Assembly: GCA_947628825.1 (NCBI GenBank)
Contig: CANRBH010000002.1
Span: forward strand, 8,626-72,625
Length of the DNA stretch: 64,000 nucleotides
Direction of reading: 5' to 3'
Origin: an uncultured Clostridia bacterium
GTDB lineage: Bacteria > Bacillota > Clostridia > TANB77 > CAG-508
Part shown: positions 5,173 through 34,722 of the stretch, in pieces
Numbering within the stretch: the first letter of the stretch is position 1
How the letters are laid out: every line of letters starts with the position of its first letter
Position numbers and translations under genes: made by a program
Notes under the pieces: generated by a model
Told to the model about the DNA's origin: nothing
The model's database searches: none
The model's input: only the letters and a program-made list of their open reading frames with translations

Positions 5173-5328
5173 CAGTTTATAACGTTTTTTATGAAAATTA
5201 TAAATTGATAAAAGTCAATAAAAATTTGCCGACTGCCCACCATTTGTCCACAAAAAATAAAATGCCTACCTATTTTGGTGGGCAATTTTTTACATTCTAA
5301 AATTTATATAAAAGCTTTATTATTTATA

Positions 5329-6024
5329 CTAACTTGCTTTTCCAACTCTCCAAGAAATTTTAGATACCATGTTATTTTCTATTTCAAATGTCAAAATTGT
5401 AGCATTGTCTTCAATAGAAGCATATCCATTTATGTAAGGCGGACACATATATACATATCTTATAATATAGCTATTTTCAGATTTTAAAGATGTTTCATAA
5501 GCATAGAAAATAGCTTCTTTTGTTTTTACAGTATTTAAATTATATATATTAAAATTACCATATATATATTTACCAATTATTTTCTCCTCAGAAGAATATG
5601 CATAATTATCTTCATCTGTAGAGCTTTCTTTATAAAAAATTTCCGTAACCTTATTAACATCATCTCCAATAGATATTCCTTTAAAACTATAATTTGGAGA
5701 TTGTAAAATAAGTTCAGTTAATTTGTTATTTGAAAATAAAGCAGTACAATCTTTATAAGTTAATACTTTTATTATATCTCCTGTATCTTCATTTGTTGAA
5801 GTGTTTTCATTGGTAGGACTTCCAAGAACAGAAATTACATATTCTTTGGAAGCATTATAATATAGTTTTTCCTCTTTTAAATCAGCAATACTAAACTTAG
5901 AAGTAATATGAGAATGTGAAGGTAAATAATAATTTTTATAATAATAGTTATATCCAAAGAAAAAAGATAAAGCTATAAATAAAATTAATAAAAGCCAAAA
6001 AATAATATCTTTTTTTACTTTCAT
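5329..6024 (-). CDS. Membrane-anchored hypothetical protein
   Basis: ATG at 6024 lies 14 nt after AGGAGG. N-terminal TM helix IIFWLLLILFIALSFFFGY. The longer track ORF (to 6162) runs through a tRNA gene. Confidence 0.6.
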   Translation of the reverse strand: MKVKKDIIFWLLLILFIALSFFFGYNYYYKNYYLPSHSHITSKFSIADLKEEKLYYNASKEYVISVLGSPTNENTSTNEDTGDIIKVLTYKDCTALFSNNKLTELILQSPNYSFKGISIGDDVNKVTEIFYKESSTDEDNYAYSSEEKIIGKYIYGNFNIYNLNTVKTKEAIFYAYETSLKSENSYIIRYVYMCPPYINGYASIEDNATILTFEIENNMVSKISWRVGKAS

Positions 6025-14679: not shown

Positions 14680-14757
14680 GGTGGATTTAGCGTAGTTGGT
14701 TAACGCGCCAGTTTGTGGCACTGGAGACCATGGGTTCGAGTCCCATATTCCACCCCA
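14680..14757 (+). tRNA. tRNA-His (GUG) with G-1, CCA encoded
   Basis: G GTGGATT TA GCGT..AACGC ..CAGTT TGTGGC ACTGG ... ATGGG TTCGAGT CCCAT ATTCCAC C CCA. The extra 5' G pairs with C73. Confidence 0.9.
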
Positions 14758-14844
14758 TTATATATTGAGCTGTAGCTGCTGAGACTGTGCGAAACAAAGT
14801 GAGCTACAGTGTCAGTATGCAAAAGCCACATTAACATTAAACAC

Positions 14845-14919
14845 TGGGCTGTAGCCAAGCGGTAAGGCACATGACTTTGACTCATGCATGCGCTAGTTCG
14901 AATCTAGCCAGCCCAACCA
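14845..14919 (+). tRNA. tRNA-Gln (UUG), CCA encoded
   Basis: TGGGCTG TA GCCAAGCGGTAAGGCA CATGA CTTTGAC TCATG ... CTAGT TCGAATC TAGCC? CAGCCCA A CCA; typical Gln cloverleaf. Confidence 0.9.
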
Positions 14920-14927
14920 AATTGTTA

Positions 14928-14975
14928 AAACCATACAAGTATTGAGATATCAATATTTTGTATGGTTTGTTTTTA
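14928..14975 (+). terminator. Rho-independent terminator of the tRNA His-Gln unit
   Basis: AAACCATACAA / TTGTATGGTTT 11-bp stem followed by GTTTTT. Confidence 0.75.
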
Positions 14976-14977
14976 TT

Positions 14978-15003
14978 AAAGTAATGCAATAGTAATGCAA
15001 TAG
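14978..15003. repeat. attL core (direct repeat with 63831-63857)
   Basis: AAAGTAATGCAATAGTAATGCAATAG, itself a tandem of GTAATGCAATA. It recurs with one extra A at the right prophage end. The integrase gene starts 6 nt away. Confidence 0.8.
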
Positions 15004-15008
15004 CATTT

Positions 15009-16197
15009 TTAATTTATCTTTTTTAATTCTTCAATCATAAAATCATTAGATATAGAAGTATAAACATCTGAAGTAATAGAACTTCCTTTAGTATGTCCTA
15101 CTAAATTTTGTATTACTTTAGGAAATATTCCTTTTTCTACGCATCTTGTTATAAATGTGTGTCTTAATCGATGTGAATGAATAGATCCTTCTACAATATG
15201 ATATTTAGAATTTATTCTTTTTAAATAAGAATTTATTTCAGTAGGAGTAATGTATGTTTGCTTTTGATTATCCCAGAATAATAATCCATTTATATTTGTT
15301 GTTTTTTGGTTTAATATTTTTTCTATTAAATCCTTTACAGTAGTGCTCATAGGAAATGTTCTTTTTCCTTTGTCAATTCCAGATGTTCTTTTATAAGTTT
15401 TTGTATGTTCTCCCATAATAACATGAAAATTATCATCTTGTGTAAGAGTACGATATATTGTAAGAGTATTATTTTTTAAATCAATACAATCTTTGCTTAA
15501 TGCTAATACTTCTCCAATACGCATACCTGTATAAAGCTGGAGTAAAATGATATCCCTATATTTATGGCTATATTCTTGATTGTTTAAAACATTTACTAAT
15601 TTATTTTCTTCTTCGATAGTTAATGCTTCGATTTTCTTTTCTGGTATTTGAGAAATAGGTTTAGTTAAAGTTTCATCTAACATTATATTAAAAGATATTT
15701 TTCTTCTTGAATTTGCAATTTGAAATGTTTTACTAATTAGTATCCACATTTTGCTGATAACGGCATTTGAGTACCTTCGCATTTCTTCTTTACTATCTTC
15801 AATATCTTCGACTCTTATTTTTTGAATAGGTTTATTGATAAAATTGCTACAAGTATTTTCTATTTGCTTTATTGTAGATAATTCTCTACCATAAGACCTA
15901 TCAGAAGTAATGCCATCTTTATGTTTTTGTTCAACATATTTTTTTAATATTTCGATAAAAGTATCTTTACTTTTTTCAATATAAGTACCAGTATTTAATT
16001 TTTCTTTTGTTGATGTAACTCTTTTTCTAAAATCTCTTTCACTTTCATTTCTCTTTTGTCTTAATGTTTGTCTTTTTCCATTAGGTTCTGTGTATTGAAA
16101 TATAAAACGACCTAATGTTTCACTTTTGTAAAAACTTCCGTTCACCATTGGCTACAGCCTTTGGCTTTCCATTTTTTGGTTTCTTTTCATTTTCCAT
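15009..16197 (-). CDS. int: Tyrosine integrase; N-terminus (ATG 16197 with AAAGGAG SD) joins the main frame only via +1 at CGG-A (16140-16137)
   Basis: C-terminal R..HRLRHT..LVGH..Y catalytic pattern. The upstream frame MENEKKPKNGKPKAVANGE ends in CGG A. The +1 frame continues GSFYKSETLGRF... Confidence 0.85.
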
Positions 16198-30524: not shown

Positions 30525-31151
30525 ATGGAAGAATATCATAAAATACAAACATTATTCAAAAGAGATGAAAAGACAAAGAAGTTAATTGAAGGAGAATTTA
30601 CTGATAAAACAGTAGAGTTTATAAAAAATCTTAAATGGCAATTTACTGAAAAGATAGACGGAACTAATATAAGAATTTTGTGGGACGGACATAAAGTAAG
30701 ATTTGGAGCTAGAACAGATGATGGACAAATTCCAGCGATATTAACAAATAGATTAGTTGAATTATTTGCAGGAGAAAAGAACGAGCAATTATTTGAGCAA
30801 AAATTTGGAGAAACAGAAGTAATGCTTTGTGGCGAAGGTTATGGTGAAAAAATTCAAAATGGTGGCTTATATAGAAAAGGACAAGATTTTATCTTATTTG
30901 ATGTAAAAATAGCAGGAAACTGGCAACCTCGTGAAAGTGTAGAAGATATTGCAAGATATTTTGGAATAGATGTAGTTCCTATTGTACTGGAAGGAACGAT
31001 ACAAGAAGGAATAGATTTTGTAAAATCAGCACCTGATTCAAAAATAGGAACAGCAAAAGCAGAAGGAGTAGTAGGTAGACCATTTATAGAAATGCAAGAC
31101 AGATGTGGTAATAGGCTAATTGTTAAGATAAAAGTAAATGATTTTAAGTAG
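30525..31151 (+). CDS. ATP-dependent RNA ligase-like nucleotidyltransferase (minimal, 208 aa)
   Basis: Motif I KIDGTN (KxDG), CGEGYG, ILFDV, AEGVVGRP and IVKIK follow the covalent nucleotidyltransferase motifs I-V of RNA/DNA ligases. Confidence 0.7.
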   Translation: MEEYHKIQTLFKRDEKTKKLIEGEFTDKTVEFIKNLKWQFTEKIDGTNIRILWDGHKVRFGARTDDGQIPAILTNRLVELFAGEKNEQLFEQKFGETEVMLCGEGYGEKIQNGGLYRKGQDFILFDVKIAGNWQPRESVEDIARYFGIDVVPIVLEGTIQEGIDFVKSAPDSKIGTAKAEGVVGRPFIEMQDRCGNRLIVKIKVNDFK

Positions 31152-31164
31152 GAGGAATTGATAT

Positions 31165-32670
31165 ATGAATTTTATGGAAAAAATGAAAGAAACTTTAAAT
31201 GAGGATTTTAATGAAAGTGTAACTGAAAATGGAGCTTTAGGCTACCGTACAACAGGGAAAGCAATACTTGATTTTAATTATAAGGTAGCAAGTTATAGAA
31301 GTAAATCAGAAGATGAAATAATAAGAGATTTTGAAAAAGTATGGTTAGATAATAAAATATTAGCGATGCAATTTCTATTCTTTATTAGAGATAGAGAAGA
31401 GGGATTAGGAGAAAGAAGATTATTCAGAGTAATAATTAAACATCTTGCTAATACAGAGCCAGAAATGGTGAAGAAAGTTATTCCAGTAATTGCTGAATAT
31501 GGAAGATTTGATGATTTATTAGAACTTTTTGAAACACCATTAGAAGAAGATGTATTGAAACTAATTAAAAATCAATTATTTGTAGATGATTTAGATTCAG
31601 ATAGTAATAAGCCTATTTCATTGTTAGCAAAATGGTTGCCTTCAATAAATGCTTCAAACAAAACTCAGATTGATAGGGCAAAGAAAATAATAAAATCATT
31701 GAATACAACAGAAAAAATGTACAGAAAATTGCTTTCAAAATTAAGAAAGTATATAGATATAACAGAAAAGAAGATGTGTGCTAATGAGTGGAAAGAAATA
31801 AAATATGAAAATGTACCTTCAAGAGCTAACTTAAATTACAACGATGCTTTCCTAAGACATGATGAAGAAAGAAGAAGAGAGTTTTTAAGTAAAGTAGAAA
31901 AGGGAGAAAAAAAGATACATGCAGGAAAGTTATATCCGCACGATATAGTACATAAATATAATGTAAGTAGATATGGAAGTAAATCAGTAGACACTACATT
32001 AGAAGAATTATGGAAAGCACTTCCACAAAAAGAAATAGCAAATACATTAGTTGTAGCTGATGGCTCTGGTTCTATGACATCAAAAATAGGTAATACAAAT
32101 ATATATGCTTTAGATGTTGCTAATGCTTTAGCAATATATTTTGCAGAGCACAATAAAGGACAATTTAAAGATAAATATATTACATTTAGCGAAGACCCAC
32201 AATATGTTGATTTTAGCGGTTGTAATTCATTATGCGATAAAATAAGAAAAGCATTATCTTATGATGAAGTTGCTAATACAAATATAGAAGCGGTATTTGA
32301 TTTAATTTTAGAAACAGCTAAAAAATATACTTTATCACAAGAAGAAATGCCAGCAAATATTCTTATCATATCTGATATGGAATTTGATTATGCTGTTGAT
32401 GGAGATGTAAATAAAAAATTGTTTCAAAATATCTCAGAAAGATATATAAATGCTGGATACAAAATACCAAGATTAGTATTTTGGAATATAAATAGTAGAA
32501 CAGGTACAATACCAATAAAAGAGAATAAATTAGGTGTAGCATTAGTATCAGGATTTAGTACAAACATAGCTGAAATGGTAATGTCAACTGAATTAGATCC
32601 ATTAAGAATATTGCTTGAAAAATTAGGAACGGAACGTTATAAAAAAATAGCAGATATTTTAGCAGAGTAG
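31165..32670 (+). CDS. Ro60-like architecture: helical N-terminal region + vWA domain with MIDAS (DUF2828-like)
   Basis: 501 aa. N-terminal ~270 aa are helical repeat-like (..FLFFIRDREEGLGERRLF..AEYGRFDDLLEL..LAKWLPS). VVADGSGSMTS is a DxSxS MIDAS motif, followed by ILIISDMEFD. Confidence 0.6.
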   Translation: MNFMEKMKETLNEDFNESVTENGALGYRTTGKAILDFNYKVASYRSKSEDEIIRDFEKVWLDNKILAMQFLFFIRDREEGLGERRLFRVIIKHLANTEPEMVKKVIPVIAEYGRFDDLLELFETPLEEDVLKLIKNQLFVDDLDSDSNKPISLLAKWLPSINASNKTQIDRAKKIIKSLNTTEKMYRKLLSKLRKYIDITEKKMCANEWKEIKYENVPSRANLNYNDAFLRHDEERRREFLSKVEKGEKKIHAGKLYPHDIVHKYNVSRYGSKSVDTTLEELWKALPQKEIANTLVVADGSGSMTSKIGNTNIYALDVANALAIYFAEHNKGQFKDKYITFSEDPQYVDFSGCNSLCDKIRKALSYDEVANTNIEAVFDLILETAKKYTLSQEEMPANILIISDMEFDYAVDGDVNKKLFQNISERYINAGYKIPRLVFWNINSRTGTIPIKENKLGVALVSGFSTNIAEMVMSTELDPLRILLEKLGTERYKKIADILAE

Positions 32671-32671
32671 C

Positions 32672-32700
32672 TTGACAAGTGCTAATGTTTATGATAGTAT
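32672..32700 (+). promoter_or_regulatory. Sigma-A promoter driving the Y-like RNA cluster
   Basis: TTGACA (32672-32677), 17 nt, TAGTAT overlapping TATAAT (32698-32703). Lies immediately after the vWA gene stop. Confidence 0.65.
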
Positions 32701-32709
32701 AATAGGCGA

Positions 32710-32841
32710 AAGATACTTACAGCAACTTAAAAAAAATACAATTATTGGGAGGCTTTTTGTCATTGGTTCAAGTCCAATATTCTTTCCGAATGGTTAGAAT
32801 TAGCTCAGTTGGGAGAGCAGAAGCATATTATATAGTATCTT
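32710..32841 (+). ncRNA. Y-RNA-like unit 1 with circularly permuted tRNA-like domain (YrlA-like)
   Basis: Closing stem AAGATACT/AGTATCTT, with TACAGCAA after the 5' strand. Inside, in order: GCTTT, TTGTC, T-arm ATTGG-TTCAAGT-CCAAT, capped acceptor-like hairpin ATTCT-TT-CC-GAAT-GG-TT-AGAAT, TA, D-arm GCTC-AGTTGGGA-GAGC, A, then GAAGC (pairs with GCTTT). Confidence 0.65.
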
Positions 32842-32855
32842 GTAAAACGCGTATA

Positions 32856-32944
32856 AAAGTTCTTACAGCAATATTCAAATGGTTAAAAATTATTGTTTGA
32901 TAGACAAAATTGAGTTGGTTCGATTCCGACACTTTTAGAACTTT
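32856..32944 (+). ncRNA. Y-RNA-like unit 2 (closing stem + T-arm)
   Basis: AAAGTTCT/AGAACTTT closing stem, TACAGCAA box, and internal T-arm GTTGG-TTCGATT-CCGAC. Confidence 0.5.
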
Positions 32945-32960
32945 GTTAAAATGAAATTGA

Positions 32961-33020
32961 AAAGTACATACAGCAATATAATAAGAAACAAACTTTGAAT
33001 TTGTCAATCTTCCGTACTTT
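32961..33020 (+). ncRNA. Y-RNA-like unit 3 (short)
   Basis: AAAGTAC/GTACTTT closing stem, TACAGCAA box, and the same CTTTGTAA 3' flank as units 1-2. Confidence 0.4.
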
Positions 33021-33063
33021 GTAATAATATATAAGCATGTTATAGAACTTGCTTTTTATTTTT

Positions 33064-33115
33064 GGAACGGAAATTTAGAACGGAAAAATTTGAAACGGAA
33101 TTTTGGAACGGAAGA
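33064..33115. repeat. Four direct iterons with core AACGGAA (plus one inverted TTCCGT at 33010-33015)
   Basis: GGAACGGAAATTT AGAACGGAAAAATTT GAAACGGAATTTT GGAACGGAAGAATTT. Cores at 33066, 33079, 33094 and 33107 (13/15/13-bp spacing). Confidence 0.8.
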
Positions 33116-33372
33116 ATTTGTGTGAAAATTTGTCACCAGAAGAAAATGCCTTGATAAATTGTTATAAATTGGTAAAAACATGTAAAAATAAAAAATAACA
33201 AAAAATATTGATAAATAAACAAAAAATGACCGCTGAAAATGGCTTTATAGACAGTTTGAAAAGCAAGACAACATCTTATATTATATCAATATAAAATGGC
33301 TTAAAATTGATTTTAGAGAGAATTAGAAGAAGCGGGGAAAATAAGCCAAACAAACAGAATAAAAACATAAAA

Positions 33373-33398
33373 AAGAAGCCTTTAAAGCTTCTTTTTTT
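33373..33398. terminator. Bidirectional terminator at the 3' end of the FtsK-like gene
   Basis: AAGAAGC CTTTAAA GCTTCTT, flanked by an A-run and a T-run. Confidence 0.7.
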
Positions 33399-34722
33399 AG
33401 TAGTGTTTAGATAAATCATTTAAAAATTTGAATATTAAGTATATGCCACCGAAGAATATTAAAAATGTCCATTTGAAAATCCAACAAATAATATTAAAAA
33501 TAAAATGAATAATATTTGATTTTTTTTGCTTTTTTTGTTGCTCTATTCTTTGTTGTTGTTTTTCTTCTTGTATTTGTTTTTCTTTTAATGCAATGACAAG
33601 TTTTTCTGCTTGTTGTCTTTTTATTTCTTCAAGGTTTGTGTTCTCATCAACTGCTTTGTCTATTTCTTCATCTGATACGTAAGCACCTTGTAACCTGTGA
33701 ATTTTTTCATCTCCTACCATTTTAAGAAGCATGTCGCCTTTTCCTGTTAGCTTTTCAGCTCCTTTTTCATCTAATATAACGCGACTATCTACTTTGGTTG
33801 ATACAGAGAAGGCAACACGTGAGGGAATATTCGCCTTTATTAGTCCTGTAATAATATCGCTTGAAGGTCTTTGAGTTGCTACGATTAAATGTACACCGCA
33901 AGCCCTCCCAATTTGTGCAATTCTACATAGTAAAGCTTCAAGGCTTTGTTCTTGTAGTGGATTTTTTCTGTTTGCTGTTTCTTCTTGTCTATCTTGTAGA
34001 ATAATGTCCGCCAATTCATCAATTATTATAACTTTATAGGCAAATTTTGCATTTATTACCTTTTTGTTATAGCTTTCAATATTTCTACAATTATAGGTTT
34101 CAAGTTGTCTATATCTGTAGTCAATTTCAAGTAGAGTATTTTTCAATATTTGCTTTGTTTCTATCAAATTATTTGCAATTTCTTTGACTTGTTCGCAATT
34201 TTTATAAATGCTCAATTCAACTTTTTTTGGGTCTATCAATGACATTTCTAAATAATCTTTTTTGTAGTTATTTAATAGGTTAATAATCATTGAATTAATA
34301 AAAATACTTTTACCGCTTCCAGTTGTTCCAGCGATTAGAAGGTGGGGAGTGTCGCATAAATTTACAACATAGTTTTTATTATTCAAGTCTTTACCTAAAC
34401 ATACTTTTAAGCCTTTTTTTTCTTTGTCTATGTATTCAATATCCTTTAAATATAATGTTTTTCTATTTTTTTTTGGTATTTCAAATACTATTCCGCTAGT
34501 TTCAAAGTCTGTTGTAAATTTTATGTTTTTAATTCCTAGTTCTGCGGATAAGTCTTCAATTAATTTCTCTATATTTGCAATTCTTGTTTTATTACTTCTA
34601 TCAATTTTTATAAAATATCGGTCTACTTGGTAGGCTTCAACAACTTTTTCTATTGAAATATTAATATTATAATTTTTATAAAAATCAATTATATTTTGCT
34701 TTATATCTTCCATTTTTACCAC
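33397..34722 (-). CDS. FtsK/SpoIIIE-family DNA translocase motor with C-terminal coiled coil and TM anchor
   Basis: Walker A GTTGSGKS, Walker B IIIDELAD, ATQRPSSDIITG.IKANIPSRVAFSV, GKGDML. No N-terminal TM and no gamma domain. The C-terminus is EEKQQQRIEQQKKQKK followed by a hydrophobic IIHFIFNIICWIFKWTFLIFFGGIYLIF. Confidence 0.85.
   Translation of the reverse strand: MVKMEDIKQNIIDFYKNYNINISIEKVVEAYQVDRYFIKIDRSNKTRIANIEKLIEDLSAELGIKNIKFTTDFETSGIVFEIPKKNRKTLYLKDIEYIDKEKKGLKVCLGKDLNNKNYVVNLCDTPHLLIAGTTGSGKSIFINSMIINLLNNYKKDYLEMSLIDPKKVELSIYKNCEQVKEIANNLIETKQILKNTLLEIDYRYRQLETYNCRNIESYNKKVINAKFAYKVIIIDELADIILQDRQEETANRKNPLQEQSLEALLCRIAQIGRACGVHLIVATQRPSSDIITGLIKANIPSRVAFSVSTKVDSRVILDEKGAEKLTGKGDMLLKMVGDEKIHRLQGAYVSDEEIDKAVDENTNLEEIKRQQAEKLVIALKEKQIQEEKQQQRIEQQKKQKKSNIIHFIFNIICWIFKWTFLIFFGGIYLIFKFLNDLSKHY

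Follow-up and report, generated by a model that had tools for sequence, protein, structure and literature searches.

A 64-kb stretch of DNA from an uncultured Clostridia bacterium (the window) carries, within a prophage, a module of three parts on the forward strand: a gene for an RNA ligase, a gene for a 501-aa protein with a von Willebrand factor A (vWA) domain and three tandem structured RNA units. We consider it very probable that this module specifies a particle of the Ro60/Y RNA type. The fuller reading, which we favour on balance, is that a phage ribonucleoprotein of the Ro60/Y RNA kind, with a tRNA-centred role, is encoded here, the role being drawn by analogy; a function in tRNA repair, or as a tRNA decoy, is put forward tentatively, at somewhat less than even chances. 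Ro60/Y RNA particles are conserved from bacteria to humans, and their bacterial and viral roles are poorly understood. The elements listed in an earlier reading of the letters (the sequence-only reading) were all found at their coordinates, and the module comprises the following.

30525-31151, + strand: minimal ATP-dependent RNA ligase, 208 aa, nucleotidyltransferase domain only (PF09414)
31165-32670, + strand: predicted Ro60-like ring protein, 501 aa, DUF2828 and DUF7788 (vWA), intact MIDAS (metal-ion-dependent adhesion site); from Pfam and an AlphaFold2 (AF2) model
32672-32700, + strand: putative sigma-70 promoter with extended -10; from a scan and from conservation in relatives
32710-32842, + strand: unit 1, class A; closing helix 32710-32717/32834-32841, ACAGCAA box 32719-32725, invariant G 32842
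32752-32756/32820-32824, + strand: junction helix of unit 1 (anticodon-stem analogue), GCTTT/GAAGC
32762-32818, + strand: further inner parts of unit 1, namely T arm 32762-32778, capped acceptor-like helix 32779-32800, UA 32801-32802, D arm 32803-32818
32856-32945, + strand: unit 2, class B; closing helix 32856-32863/32937-32944, ACAGCAA box 32865-32871, AAUGGUUAAAA motif, invariant G 32945
32914-32930, + strand: T arm of unit 2, in normal tRNA order
32961-33021, + strand: unit 3, class C (minimal, bare module); closing helix 32961-32967/33014-33020, box 32970-32976, G 33021
33033-33063, + strand: weak terminator-like hairpin (AAGCA, 12 nt, TGCTT, then a U-rich run), read from the sequence

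The 501-aa protein matches Pfam DUF7788, itself a vWA domain, with 148 bits and DUF2828 with 116 bits, and is assigned to phrog_850, 'RNA-binding protein'. Its MIDAS, noted before as DGSGSM, reads D299-G-S301-G-S303-M304, and D299, S301, S303 and M304 are invariant among 64 homologues. An AF2 model built from a 64-sequence alignment reached a predicted local distance difference test score (pLDDT) of 92.2 and a predicted template-modelling score (pTM) of 0.90, and Foldseek, run with this model against the Protein Data Bank (PDB), returned as its top six matches Ro60/TROVE structures exclusively, aligned over their full length (526-566 aligned columns; E 1e-8 to 6e-7; template-modelling score, TM, 0.52-0.60). 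These are 9kop ('Trove domain'), 2i91_A, 2i91_B, 9nf8_A, 1yvp_B and 9nep_A, where 2i91 and 1yvp are Xenopus Ro60 and 9nf8 and 9nep human Ro60. The best of them, 9kop (E 1.3e-8, TM 0.52-0.56), is probably the Ro60 of Thermus phage phiLo, an identity that we assume. The subsequent matches are isolated vWA domains with E above 1e-3, four orders of magnitude weaker. In an earlier AF2 model from a shallow alignment (pLDDT 74.8), the three best PDB matches were already Ro60 (TM 0.38-0.47).

At the level of sequence, Pfam searched to E 10 gives DUF7788, DUF2828 and VWA_2 only, with no match to TROVE (PF05731), and phmmer searches of the PDB, with the single sequence or with a 40-sequence profile, matched no solved Ro60 chain, nor anything similar among any other solved chain; one homologue has a weak vWA_Ro60 match. 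The protein is Ro60-like in its modelled fold, a helical-repeat ring plus a vWA domain, and not in its sequence. Both halves of what the sequence-only reading had claimed here, a Ro60/Rsr-like architecture and a protein that is not recognisable as Rsr from its sequence, are borne out, and the structure prediction that it had proposed for 31165-32670 ranks Ro60/TROVE structures first. The family is large, with 6895 clusters at 50% identity (E up to 1e-3) and homologues in 705 phage records, where they are annotated as 'RNA-binding protein', 'Ro-like RNA binding protein' (in mycobacteriophages), 'vWFA protein' or 'hypothetical', and as a DUF2828 family it is invisible to TROVE-based searches.

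The RNA array begins 40 nt past the stop codon of the 501-aa gene, on the same strand. Its units share a constant module. A helix closes each unit, and the invariant parts are an ACAGCAA box, set just within this helix on its 5′ side, and a G just past its 3′ strand. In an alignment of 65 minimal units from unrelated phages (A2), A-C-A-G-C-(A)-A and the 3′ G are invariant, and the eight pairs of the closing helix are 95.4% paired, against 30-50% in slid controls, a percentage that is partly circular because these units were picked for having the stem. In the same helix, two-sided changes affect 172 cells (46.6 in shuffles), in agreement with the compensatory change that had been noticed between the closing helices of the window. 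RNAalifold, run on A2, found the same closing helix and nothing else. As the stem is identical in many units, a closing-helix swap control was weak (8 or more pairs in 41% against 19%).

A covariance model, R1, was built from A2, mainly from other phages; unit 3 is in its training set and unit 2 is not. Covariance-model scans covered both strands of the window, and R1 matched at the three units only, with 58.1 bits for unit 3 (a training member), 41.4 bits (E 1.4e-6) for unit 2 and, for unit 1, a weak match to its 5′ part alone (14.7 bits, E about 1). Together, A2 and R1 bear out the claim of three paralogous, stem-closed units with conserved boxes. A pseudoknot between ACAGCAA and the 3′ UUGU was considered and rejected by geometric reasoning, as zero-length linkers cannot span an 8-bp helix. 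Many of the minimal units of A2 share an inner hairpin near GAYUUGACUGCWAAUC (for example L042 3550-3623, L065 1896-1966 and L114 647-718), which, seen by eye, could be an anticodon-arm-like element.

An inverted repeat bounds each unit, and other conserved tandem boxes (GRAACGGA) lie just downstream of the array, so that the repeats might instead act as DNA, as protein-binding palindromes, recombination sites or replication elements, with the RNA structures as by-products. This we regard as most improbable: all model matches lie on one strand, the helix sequences vary freely while pairing is kept, and the inner modules resemble tRNA arms and give matches to the YrlA model. In addition, G.U combinations outnumber A.C by 88 to 27 in the tested helices, an excess that indicates an RNA made on the + strand.

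Inside its constant module, unit 1 holds a permuted tRNA-like domain of the YrlA type. This had been proposed from the letters and is now borne out by covariation, by held-out model matches and by a sub-threshold YrlA match. In alignment A3, made with MAFFT from 12 class A homologues, the closing helix is 97.9% paired, the T arm 100%, the acceptor-like helix 96.7% and the D arm 100%, against 33-41% in slid controls, and 23 of the 27 pairs show two-sided changes. The junction helix fared less well: the GCTTT/GAAGC sequences proposed as the analogue of an anticodon stem are present, but only the inner three of the five pairs are kept in A3, the outer two being unsupported. The covariance model R2, built from A3, found 141 matches in 100 sources, 141 of 141 on the strand of the gene. 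Pairing in 32 held-out R2 matches is 100% for the T arm and 96.9% for the D arm, with 83.6% for the closing helix, 69.7% for the acceptor-like helix and 58.7% for the junction helix, all in an alignment fitted to the model. When class A units were chosen without a stem requirement, a simple closing helix was present in 11 of 11 near-clade cases and in few distant-clade cases; in the distant clade the stem must be interrupted or different.

The Rfam model of YrlA (RF02553) aligns to 32754-32822 of unit 1 with its positions 23-85 (24.5 bits, E 0.009). The search with this model, which the sequence-only reading had proposed, thus recovered the tRNA-like part, but at a score below the threshold of 69 bits. 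The Ro-binding stem part of the model (positions 1-22 and 86-114) is unmatched in the window and poorly matched in relatives. Scores in phage relatives overall range from 28 to 45 bits, also below 69; beside DUF2828 genes, sub-threshold full-length matches occur in Enterococcus phage EFDG1 (43-45 and 34 bits) and in mycobacteriophage Jubie (39 bits), with the stem positions poorly aligned in both. No Rfam family (Rfam 15) reached its threshold on the units of the window and of 16 related loci. The GGCGAAAG sequence at 32705-32712 was considered as a canonical Ro-binding motif and rejected, since it is absent from orthologues such as L001 and L017. One class A unit, in the related locus L002 (5414-5609), carries a complete tRNA-Met (5491-5565) in the loop of its acceptor-like helix; if RNase P and RNase Z excised this tRNA, the Y-like RNA would be left in two pieces, with free ends at its acceptor-like helix.

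Unit 2 contains part of a tRNA body. In alignment A5, of 13 class B homologues, the closing helix is 97.1% and the T arm 96.9% paired; an anticodon-like hairpin was also considered for this class and is unsupported (56% paired in A5). Rfam tRNA (RF00005) matches unit 2 partially, with 19 bits against a threshold of 29, and ARAGORN calls no tRNA within 32700-33030. In some relatives a full D arm, anticodon arm and T arm are enclosed by the Y-type stem.

Such resemblances raise the question of whether a phage tRNA island has left these units behind as decayed or rearranged tRNA genes, with no dedicated protein partner and only incidentally close to DUF2828. The flanks often contain tRNA genes, a class B unit of L001 is called as tRNA-Pro by ARAGORN, and the Rfam tRNA model partly matches some relatives as it does unit 2. 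We nevertheless find this explanation very unlikely, for the constant module is not a tRNA feature and yet is kept from mycobacteriophages to coliphages, minimal units exist that have no tRNA-like part at all, and the tRNA cluster of the window itself, at 40-42 kb, is free of ACAGCAA units. Moreover, the helices covary, and the units are therefore under selection.

The array also has the outline of a transcription unit of its own. As the sequence-only reading had claimed, a consensus promoter stands at 32672, with TTGACA at 32672-32677, a 17-nt spacer, TG at 32692-32693 (TGnTAGTAT) and TAGTAT at 32695-32700. Promoter-like sites in this AT-rich region number 20, where 20 are expected by chance; because the count alone equals chance, support for the promoter comes from its conservation in relatives. 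Of 10 near-clade loci, 7 have a strict pattern (TTGACA-like, 17-nt spacer, TGnTAnnnT) that ends 8-16 nt short of unit 1, and the remaining three have near matches. Judged by its sequence and position, this putative promoter would serve for transcription of the RNA array. The region's best promoter-like match is a different one, TTGACA-18-TATTAT on the - strand at 32978-33007 (11/12), inside unit 3, and is probably a chance match in AT-rich DNA. At the other end, the hairpin at 33033-33063 was not called by the terminator scan because its loop exceeds 8 nt; most near-clade loci have a hairpin and U-run terminator after the final unit, and clear ones stand at the same place in L001, L002, L010, L012, L017 and L037.

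The association of these RNAs with the Ro60-like gene extends over many phages. The module adjoins DUF2828 genes, always on the gene strand, in more than 100 metagenomic phage loci. L001 and L002, relatives of the window locus, have the same units after the gene; close relatives of the 501-aa protein are encoded in assemblies of uncultured Clostridia. A count of ACAGCNA in 115 loci gave 697 occurrences on the gene strand, against 175 on the opposite strand and 142 in shuffles, and in 31 loci all 42 of the R1 matches lie on the gene strand. Among cultured phages, the box and stem were seen by eye next to the gene in each of the eight groups examined: Enterococcus phage EFDG1, mycobacteriophage Jubie, Campylobacter phage F336, Staphylococcus phage S-CoN_Ph1, Fusobacterium phage Fnu1, Listeria phage LP-066, Bacillus phage PBC2 and a Felix-O1-like coliphage, in which the units lie between tRNA genes. 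Jubie (Lumosvirus) presumably belongs to cluster L. In EFDG1 (L033 1380-1830) a repeated leader of about 50 nt with a GTTCC...GGAAC hairpin precedes each of three units; this leader was not seen in the window. In Escherichia phage vB_EcoM_LMP34 (L030 4716-5551) ACAGCAA units lie between annotated tRNA genes, and at least one of them (5338-5407) falls under a 'hypothetical protein' coding sequence, 5276-5449, which is probably a spurious call. Small 'hypothetical' reading frames in phage tRNA islands are thereby flagged as probable RNA genes.

The position of the array relative to the gene varies, being downstream, upstream or between tRNA genes, and therefore fits trans-acting RNAs. If the units were instead cis-acting elements of the Ro-like mRNA, in a leader or trailer through which the protein regulates itself, one would look to the clade at 53-60% identity, where boxes on the strand of the gene crowd into the 500 nt upstream of it and are nearly absent within it, and to the Listeria, Enterococcus, Bacillus and Campylobacter phages, where they are upstream too; RNA-binding proteins also often bind their own mRNA. 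The array of the window clade, however, is downstream, between a conserved promoter of its own and a terminator, the units of Felix-O1-like phages are scattered between tRNA genes, and arrays of 3-5 units with elaborate tRNA-like modules are more than a simple operator needs. We thus hold autoregulation in cis to be unlikely.

Taking the units as partner RNAs in trans, we propose the following arrangement. The 501-aa DUF2828/vWA protein would fold into a Ro60-like ring, and the three RNAs would be its Y-RNA-like partners, which a promoter of their own would transcribe as a single array of about 320 nt, stopping at the terminator and probably cut into units. The constant module (a closing helix of 7-9 bp, ACAGCAA and the 3′ G) is the proposed protein-binding site, or handle; in Ro60, Y RNA is bound on the outer surface and the central hole takes single-stranded RNA ends. 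The interior of each unit would then be a variable effector: in unit 1 a permuted tRNA mimic, in unit 2 part of a tRNA body including a T arm, and in unit 3 almost nothing. By analogy with Ro60/Y RNA, the tRNA mimics may tether the ring to tRNA-handling enzymes or serve as decoys, the candidate enzymes being the adjacent RNA ligase, a host nuclease such as polynucleotide phosphorylase (PNPase) and host tRNA-cleaving defence nucleases. Such a particle would help the phage to keep its tRNAs working during infection.

Published work on related systems supports a tRNA-centred role. The rsr-yrlBA-rtcBA operon of Salmonella is induced by cleaved tRNAs, and its authors suggested that YrlA could competitively inhibit an anticodon nuclease (PMC7790460). 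In D. radiodurans a Y RNA tethers Rsr to PNPase (PMC4201824), and PNPase of the host is less active in the complex that it forms with Ro60 and a Yrl RNA of Thermus phage phiLo (PMC12135203). Bas63 gp130, described in a preprint as structurally Ro60-like and located upstream of tRNA genes, counters the ppl defence system, which consists of an ATPase and a PHP-domain protein (PMC11482910). Y RNAs have been sought within 4 kb of a Ro60 gene and on the same strand (PMC4201824), and the window units, 40 nt from the stop codon, lie well inside these limits.

Compared with the bacterial system of Rsr with YrlA and YrlB, as in Salmonella, the window module likewise has a ring protein with a vWA domain and MIDAS, same-strand partner RNAs within 1 kb, of which there are several per locus, one permuted tRNA-like (T arm, capped acceptor-like helix, D arm) and shorter ones not, and an RNA ligase gene alongside, as in the rsr/rtcBA operon. 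It differs in that its protein is DUF2828/DUF7788 without a TROVE match, that its stem has the ACAGCAA box and the 3′ G and not GNCGAAN0-1G in a bulged two-part stem, that unit 1 reaches only 24.5 of the 69 bits of the YrlA threshold, and that the ligase is an ATP-dependent PF09414 enzyme, not RtcB, carried by a prophage of an uncultured Clostridia bacterium; that the ligase is of a family other than RtcB had also been read from the letters. With phiLo the module shares a phage-encoded Ro60-like ring and adjacent Y-like RNAs (PMC12135203), but Yrl1 and Yrl2 of phiLo stand upstream of the gene, and what defines them is a CGAA motif within a stem-bulge-stem. The text of the phiLo paper uses 'tRNA' twice and 'ligase' not at all (PMC12135203).

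Felix-O1-like phages have a homologue 37% identical to the window protein, directly upstream of the tRNA array, a position that matches the description of Bas63 gp130 (PMC11482910). gp130, known here by that description, thus appears to belong to the DUF2828 family, and its ppl phenotype is the only experimental phenotype for the family. Its authors guessed that some annotated tRNAs might be Y RNAs (PMC11482910); the partner candidates found here are, by contrast, separate ACAGCAA-box units between the tRNA genes, and make a concrete candidate for the 'missing Y RNAs' of gp130.

The same literature allows a particle that is real and has a job other than tRNA repair or decoy, capturing host PNPase or another exonuclease, or neutralising a defence that does not act on tRNA, such as ppl. 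The complex of phiLo and its effect on PNPase (PMC12135203), the tethering of Rsr to PNPase in D. radiodurans (PMC4201824) and the action of gp130 against ppl (PMC11482910) all speak for such a job, to which we give a minor though real share of the probability. The recurrent tRNA mimicry, the embedding in tRNA islands and the RNA ligase, end-healing genes and RtcB found nearby indicate tRNA biology instead; they are also compatible with recruitment of PNPase.

Neighbouring genes bear on the preferred, tRNA-centred reading in both directions. Of 54 loci, 38 have tRNA genes in their flanks, without exception on the gene strand, and RNA repair genes occur in the wider family: PHA02142-OB with RNA_ligase (6 loci), an AAA_33 kinase with HD, and RtcB (in a Listeria phage). 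In the window, the ligase open reading frame (30525-31151) matches PF09414 RNA_ligase over residues 37-203 with 69.5 bits (cutoff 27), which confirms the KxDG RNA-ligase-type nucleotidyltransferase noticed from the letters; it also matches phrog_548 'RNA ligase' and, weakly, Naegleria RNA ligase and T4 Rnl2 in the PDB and TIGR02307 Rnl2. Motif I, KIDG, is at residues 43-46, and EGVVGR and KIK are readable too. The 208 aa hold a nucleotidyltransferase domain and no other, and neither the C-terminal domain of Rnl2 nor the N-terminal OB fold of Rnl5/PHA02142 was found in it; the PHA02142 OB plus RNA_ligase architecture is present at the loci of other relatives. PADLOC and NCBIfam added nothing for the ligase or the 501-aa protein. 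Homologues of the ligase adjoin the Ro-like gene or the RNA array only in the closest relatives (L001/L036, L025 and L002), upstream or downstream of the RNA array. T4-type tRNA repair uses Pnkp and Rnl1 against the anticodon nuclease PrrC. The likeness to it lies in a phage-encoded RNA ligase and, in relatives, a kinase/phosphatase end-healing enzyme near tRNA-related functions; unlike the T4 Rnl1 system, the window ligase is a nucleotidyltransferase domain alone, and T4 repair is not known to involve a Ro-like protein or a Y-like RNA. From these neighbours we infer a possible part for the particle in tRNA repair or counter-defence.

Several observations weigh against the interpretation as a whole. 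Similarity of the protein to TROVE or to solved Ro60 is undetectable in sequence, and the homology is argued from fold alone. The canonical GNCGAAN0-1G motif is not conserved among the orthologues of unit 1, GGCGAAAG being missing there, and many distant-clade class A units have no simple contiguous closing helix. Single-sequence folding energies are no better than those of shuffles (z -0.2 to -0.8, at 25-35% GC); the folding of single units is therefore uninformative, and support for the RNAs is comparative, not thermodynamic. As to function, the linkage to the ligase is limited to the closest relatives, and the commonest protein neighbours are not repair enzymes but Band_7 (17 loci) and a class-V aminotransferase (15 loci). 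The Band_7/SPFH gene is seen, for example, at 4394-5386 of L058 and in 16 further loci, and also in Jubie (L031 625-1557).

Phage Ro60 homologues with Y-like RNAs are already known (PMC4201824, PMC12135203), as is tRNA mimicry by YrlA, so the suggestion that the system had not been described holds in part. What appears to be undescribed is the ACAGCAA-box module, its three classes, its strict link to DUF2828 and its breadth across phages; literature searches found no description of an ACAGCAA RNA family, though the family may have been mentioned before. For this very large group of Ro60-like proteins, the module gives a simple signature, in sequence and structure, by which the likely RNA partners may be recognised. 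A bolder possibility, which we hold only loosely and regard as speculative, is that the ACAGCAA-box RNAs are a large unannotated class of modular phage adaptor RNAs, each with its handle on a Ro60-like ring, whose interchangeable mimics (a permuted body, a body in normal order and possibly the anticodon-arm-like hairpin) would, as decoys or tethers, neutralise host tRNA-cleaving immune nucleases, the RNAs also passing broken tRNAs to phage ligases; if so, the Ro/Y particle would serve tRNA-rich phages generally as a device against defence. Tractable phages carry these RNAs, among them Felix O1 relatives, Listeria phages of the P100 type (genus Pecentumvirus), Staphylococcus 6ec/SEP9-like phages, Campylobacter Fletchervirus and Jubie, and tests of binding, processing and anti-defence activity are therefore feasible.

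The prophage setting claimed before is borne out by genes for an integrase, terminase, portal and tape measure protein. The tRNA cluster, on the other hand, is about 7.3 kb from the RNA array and does not adjoin the module, as had been thought. The features of this wider setting are:

15009-16148, - strand: integrase, beside tRNA-His and tRNA-Gln
33397-34722, - strand: FtsK/SpoIIIE-type ATPase, on the opposite strand and converging on the RNA array
40.3-41.8 kb: tRNA cluster (Phe, Trp, Pro, Gln) with a ROOL RNA
40429-40995, + strand: full-length ROOL RNA (RF03087, 327 bits), after tRNA-Phe and tRNA-Trp
43.8-60 kb: large terminase, portal, tape measure and tail genes

The region 14681-16148, with the integrase, tRNA-His and tRNA-Gln, is the likely prophage end and attachment site. 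In Listeria phage LP-066 (L029 1471-2022) a ROOL-like match of 87 bits, under the threshold of 99, separates the tRNAs from the ACAGCAA units; the Ro-like module may travel with ROOL and tRNAs. The FtsK/SpoIIIE-type ATPase has strong PADLOC matches to the C-terminal part of SspH and is kept at the same position in L021 and L023. Directly 3′ of the RNA array, at 33061-33120 of the window, stand about four tandem GRAACGGA-containing boxes with a period of 13 or 28, and similar boxes lie 3′ of the array in L010, L017 and L021.

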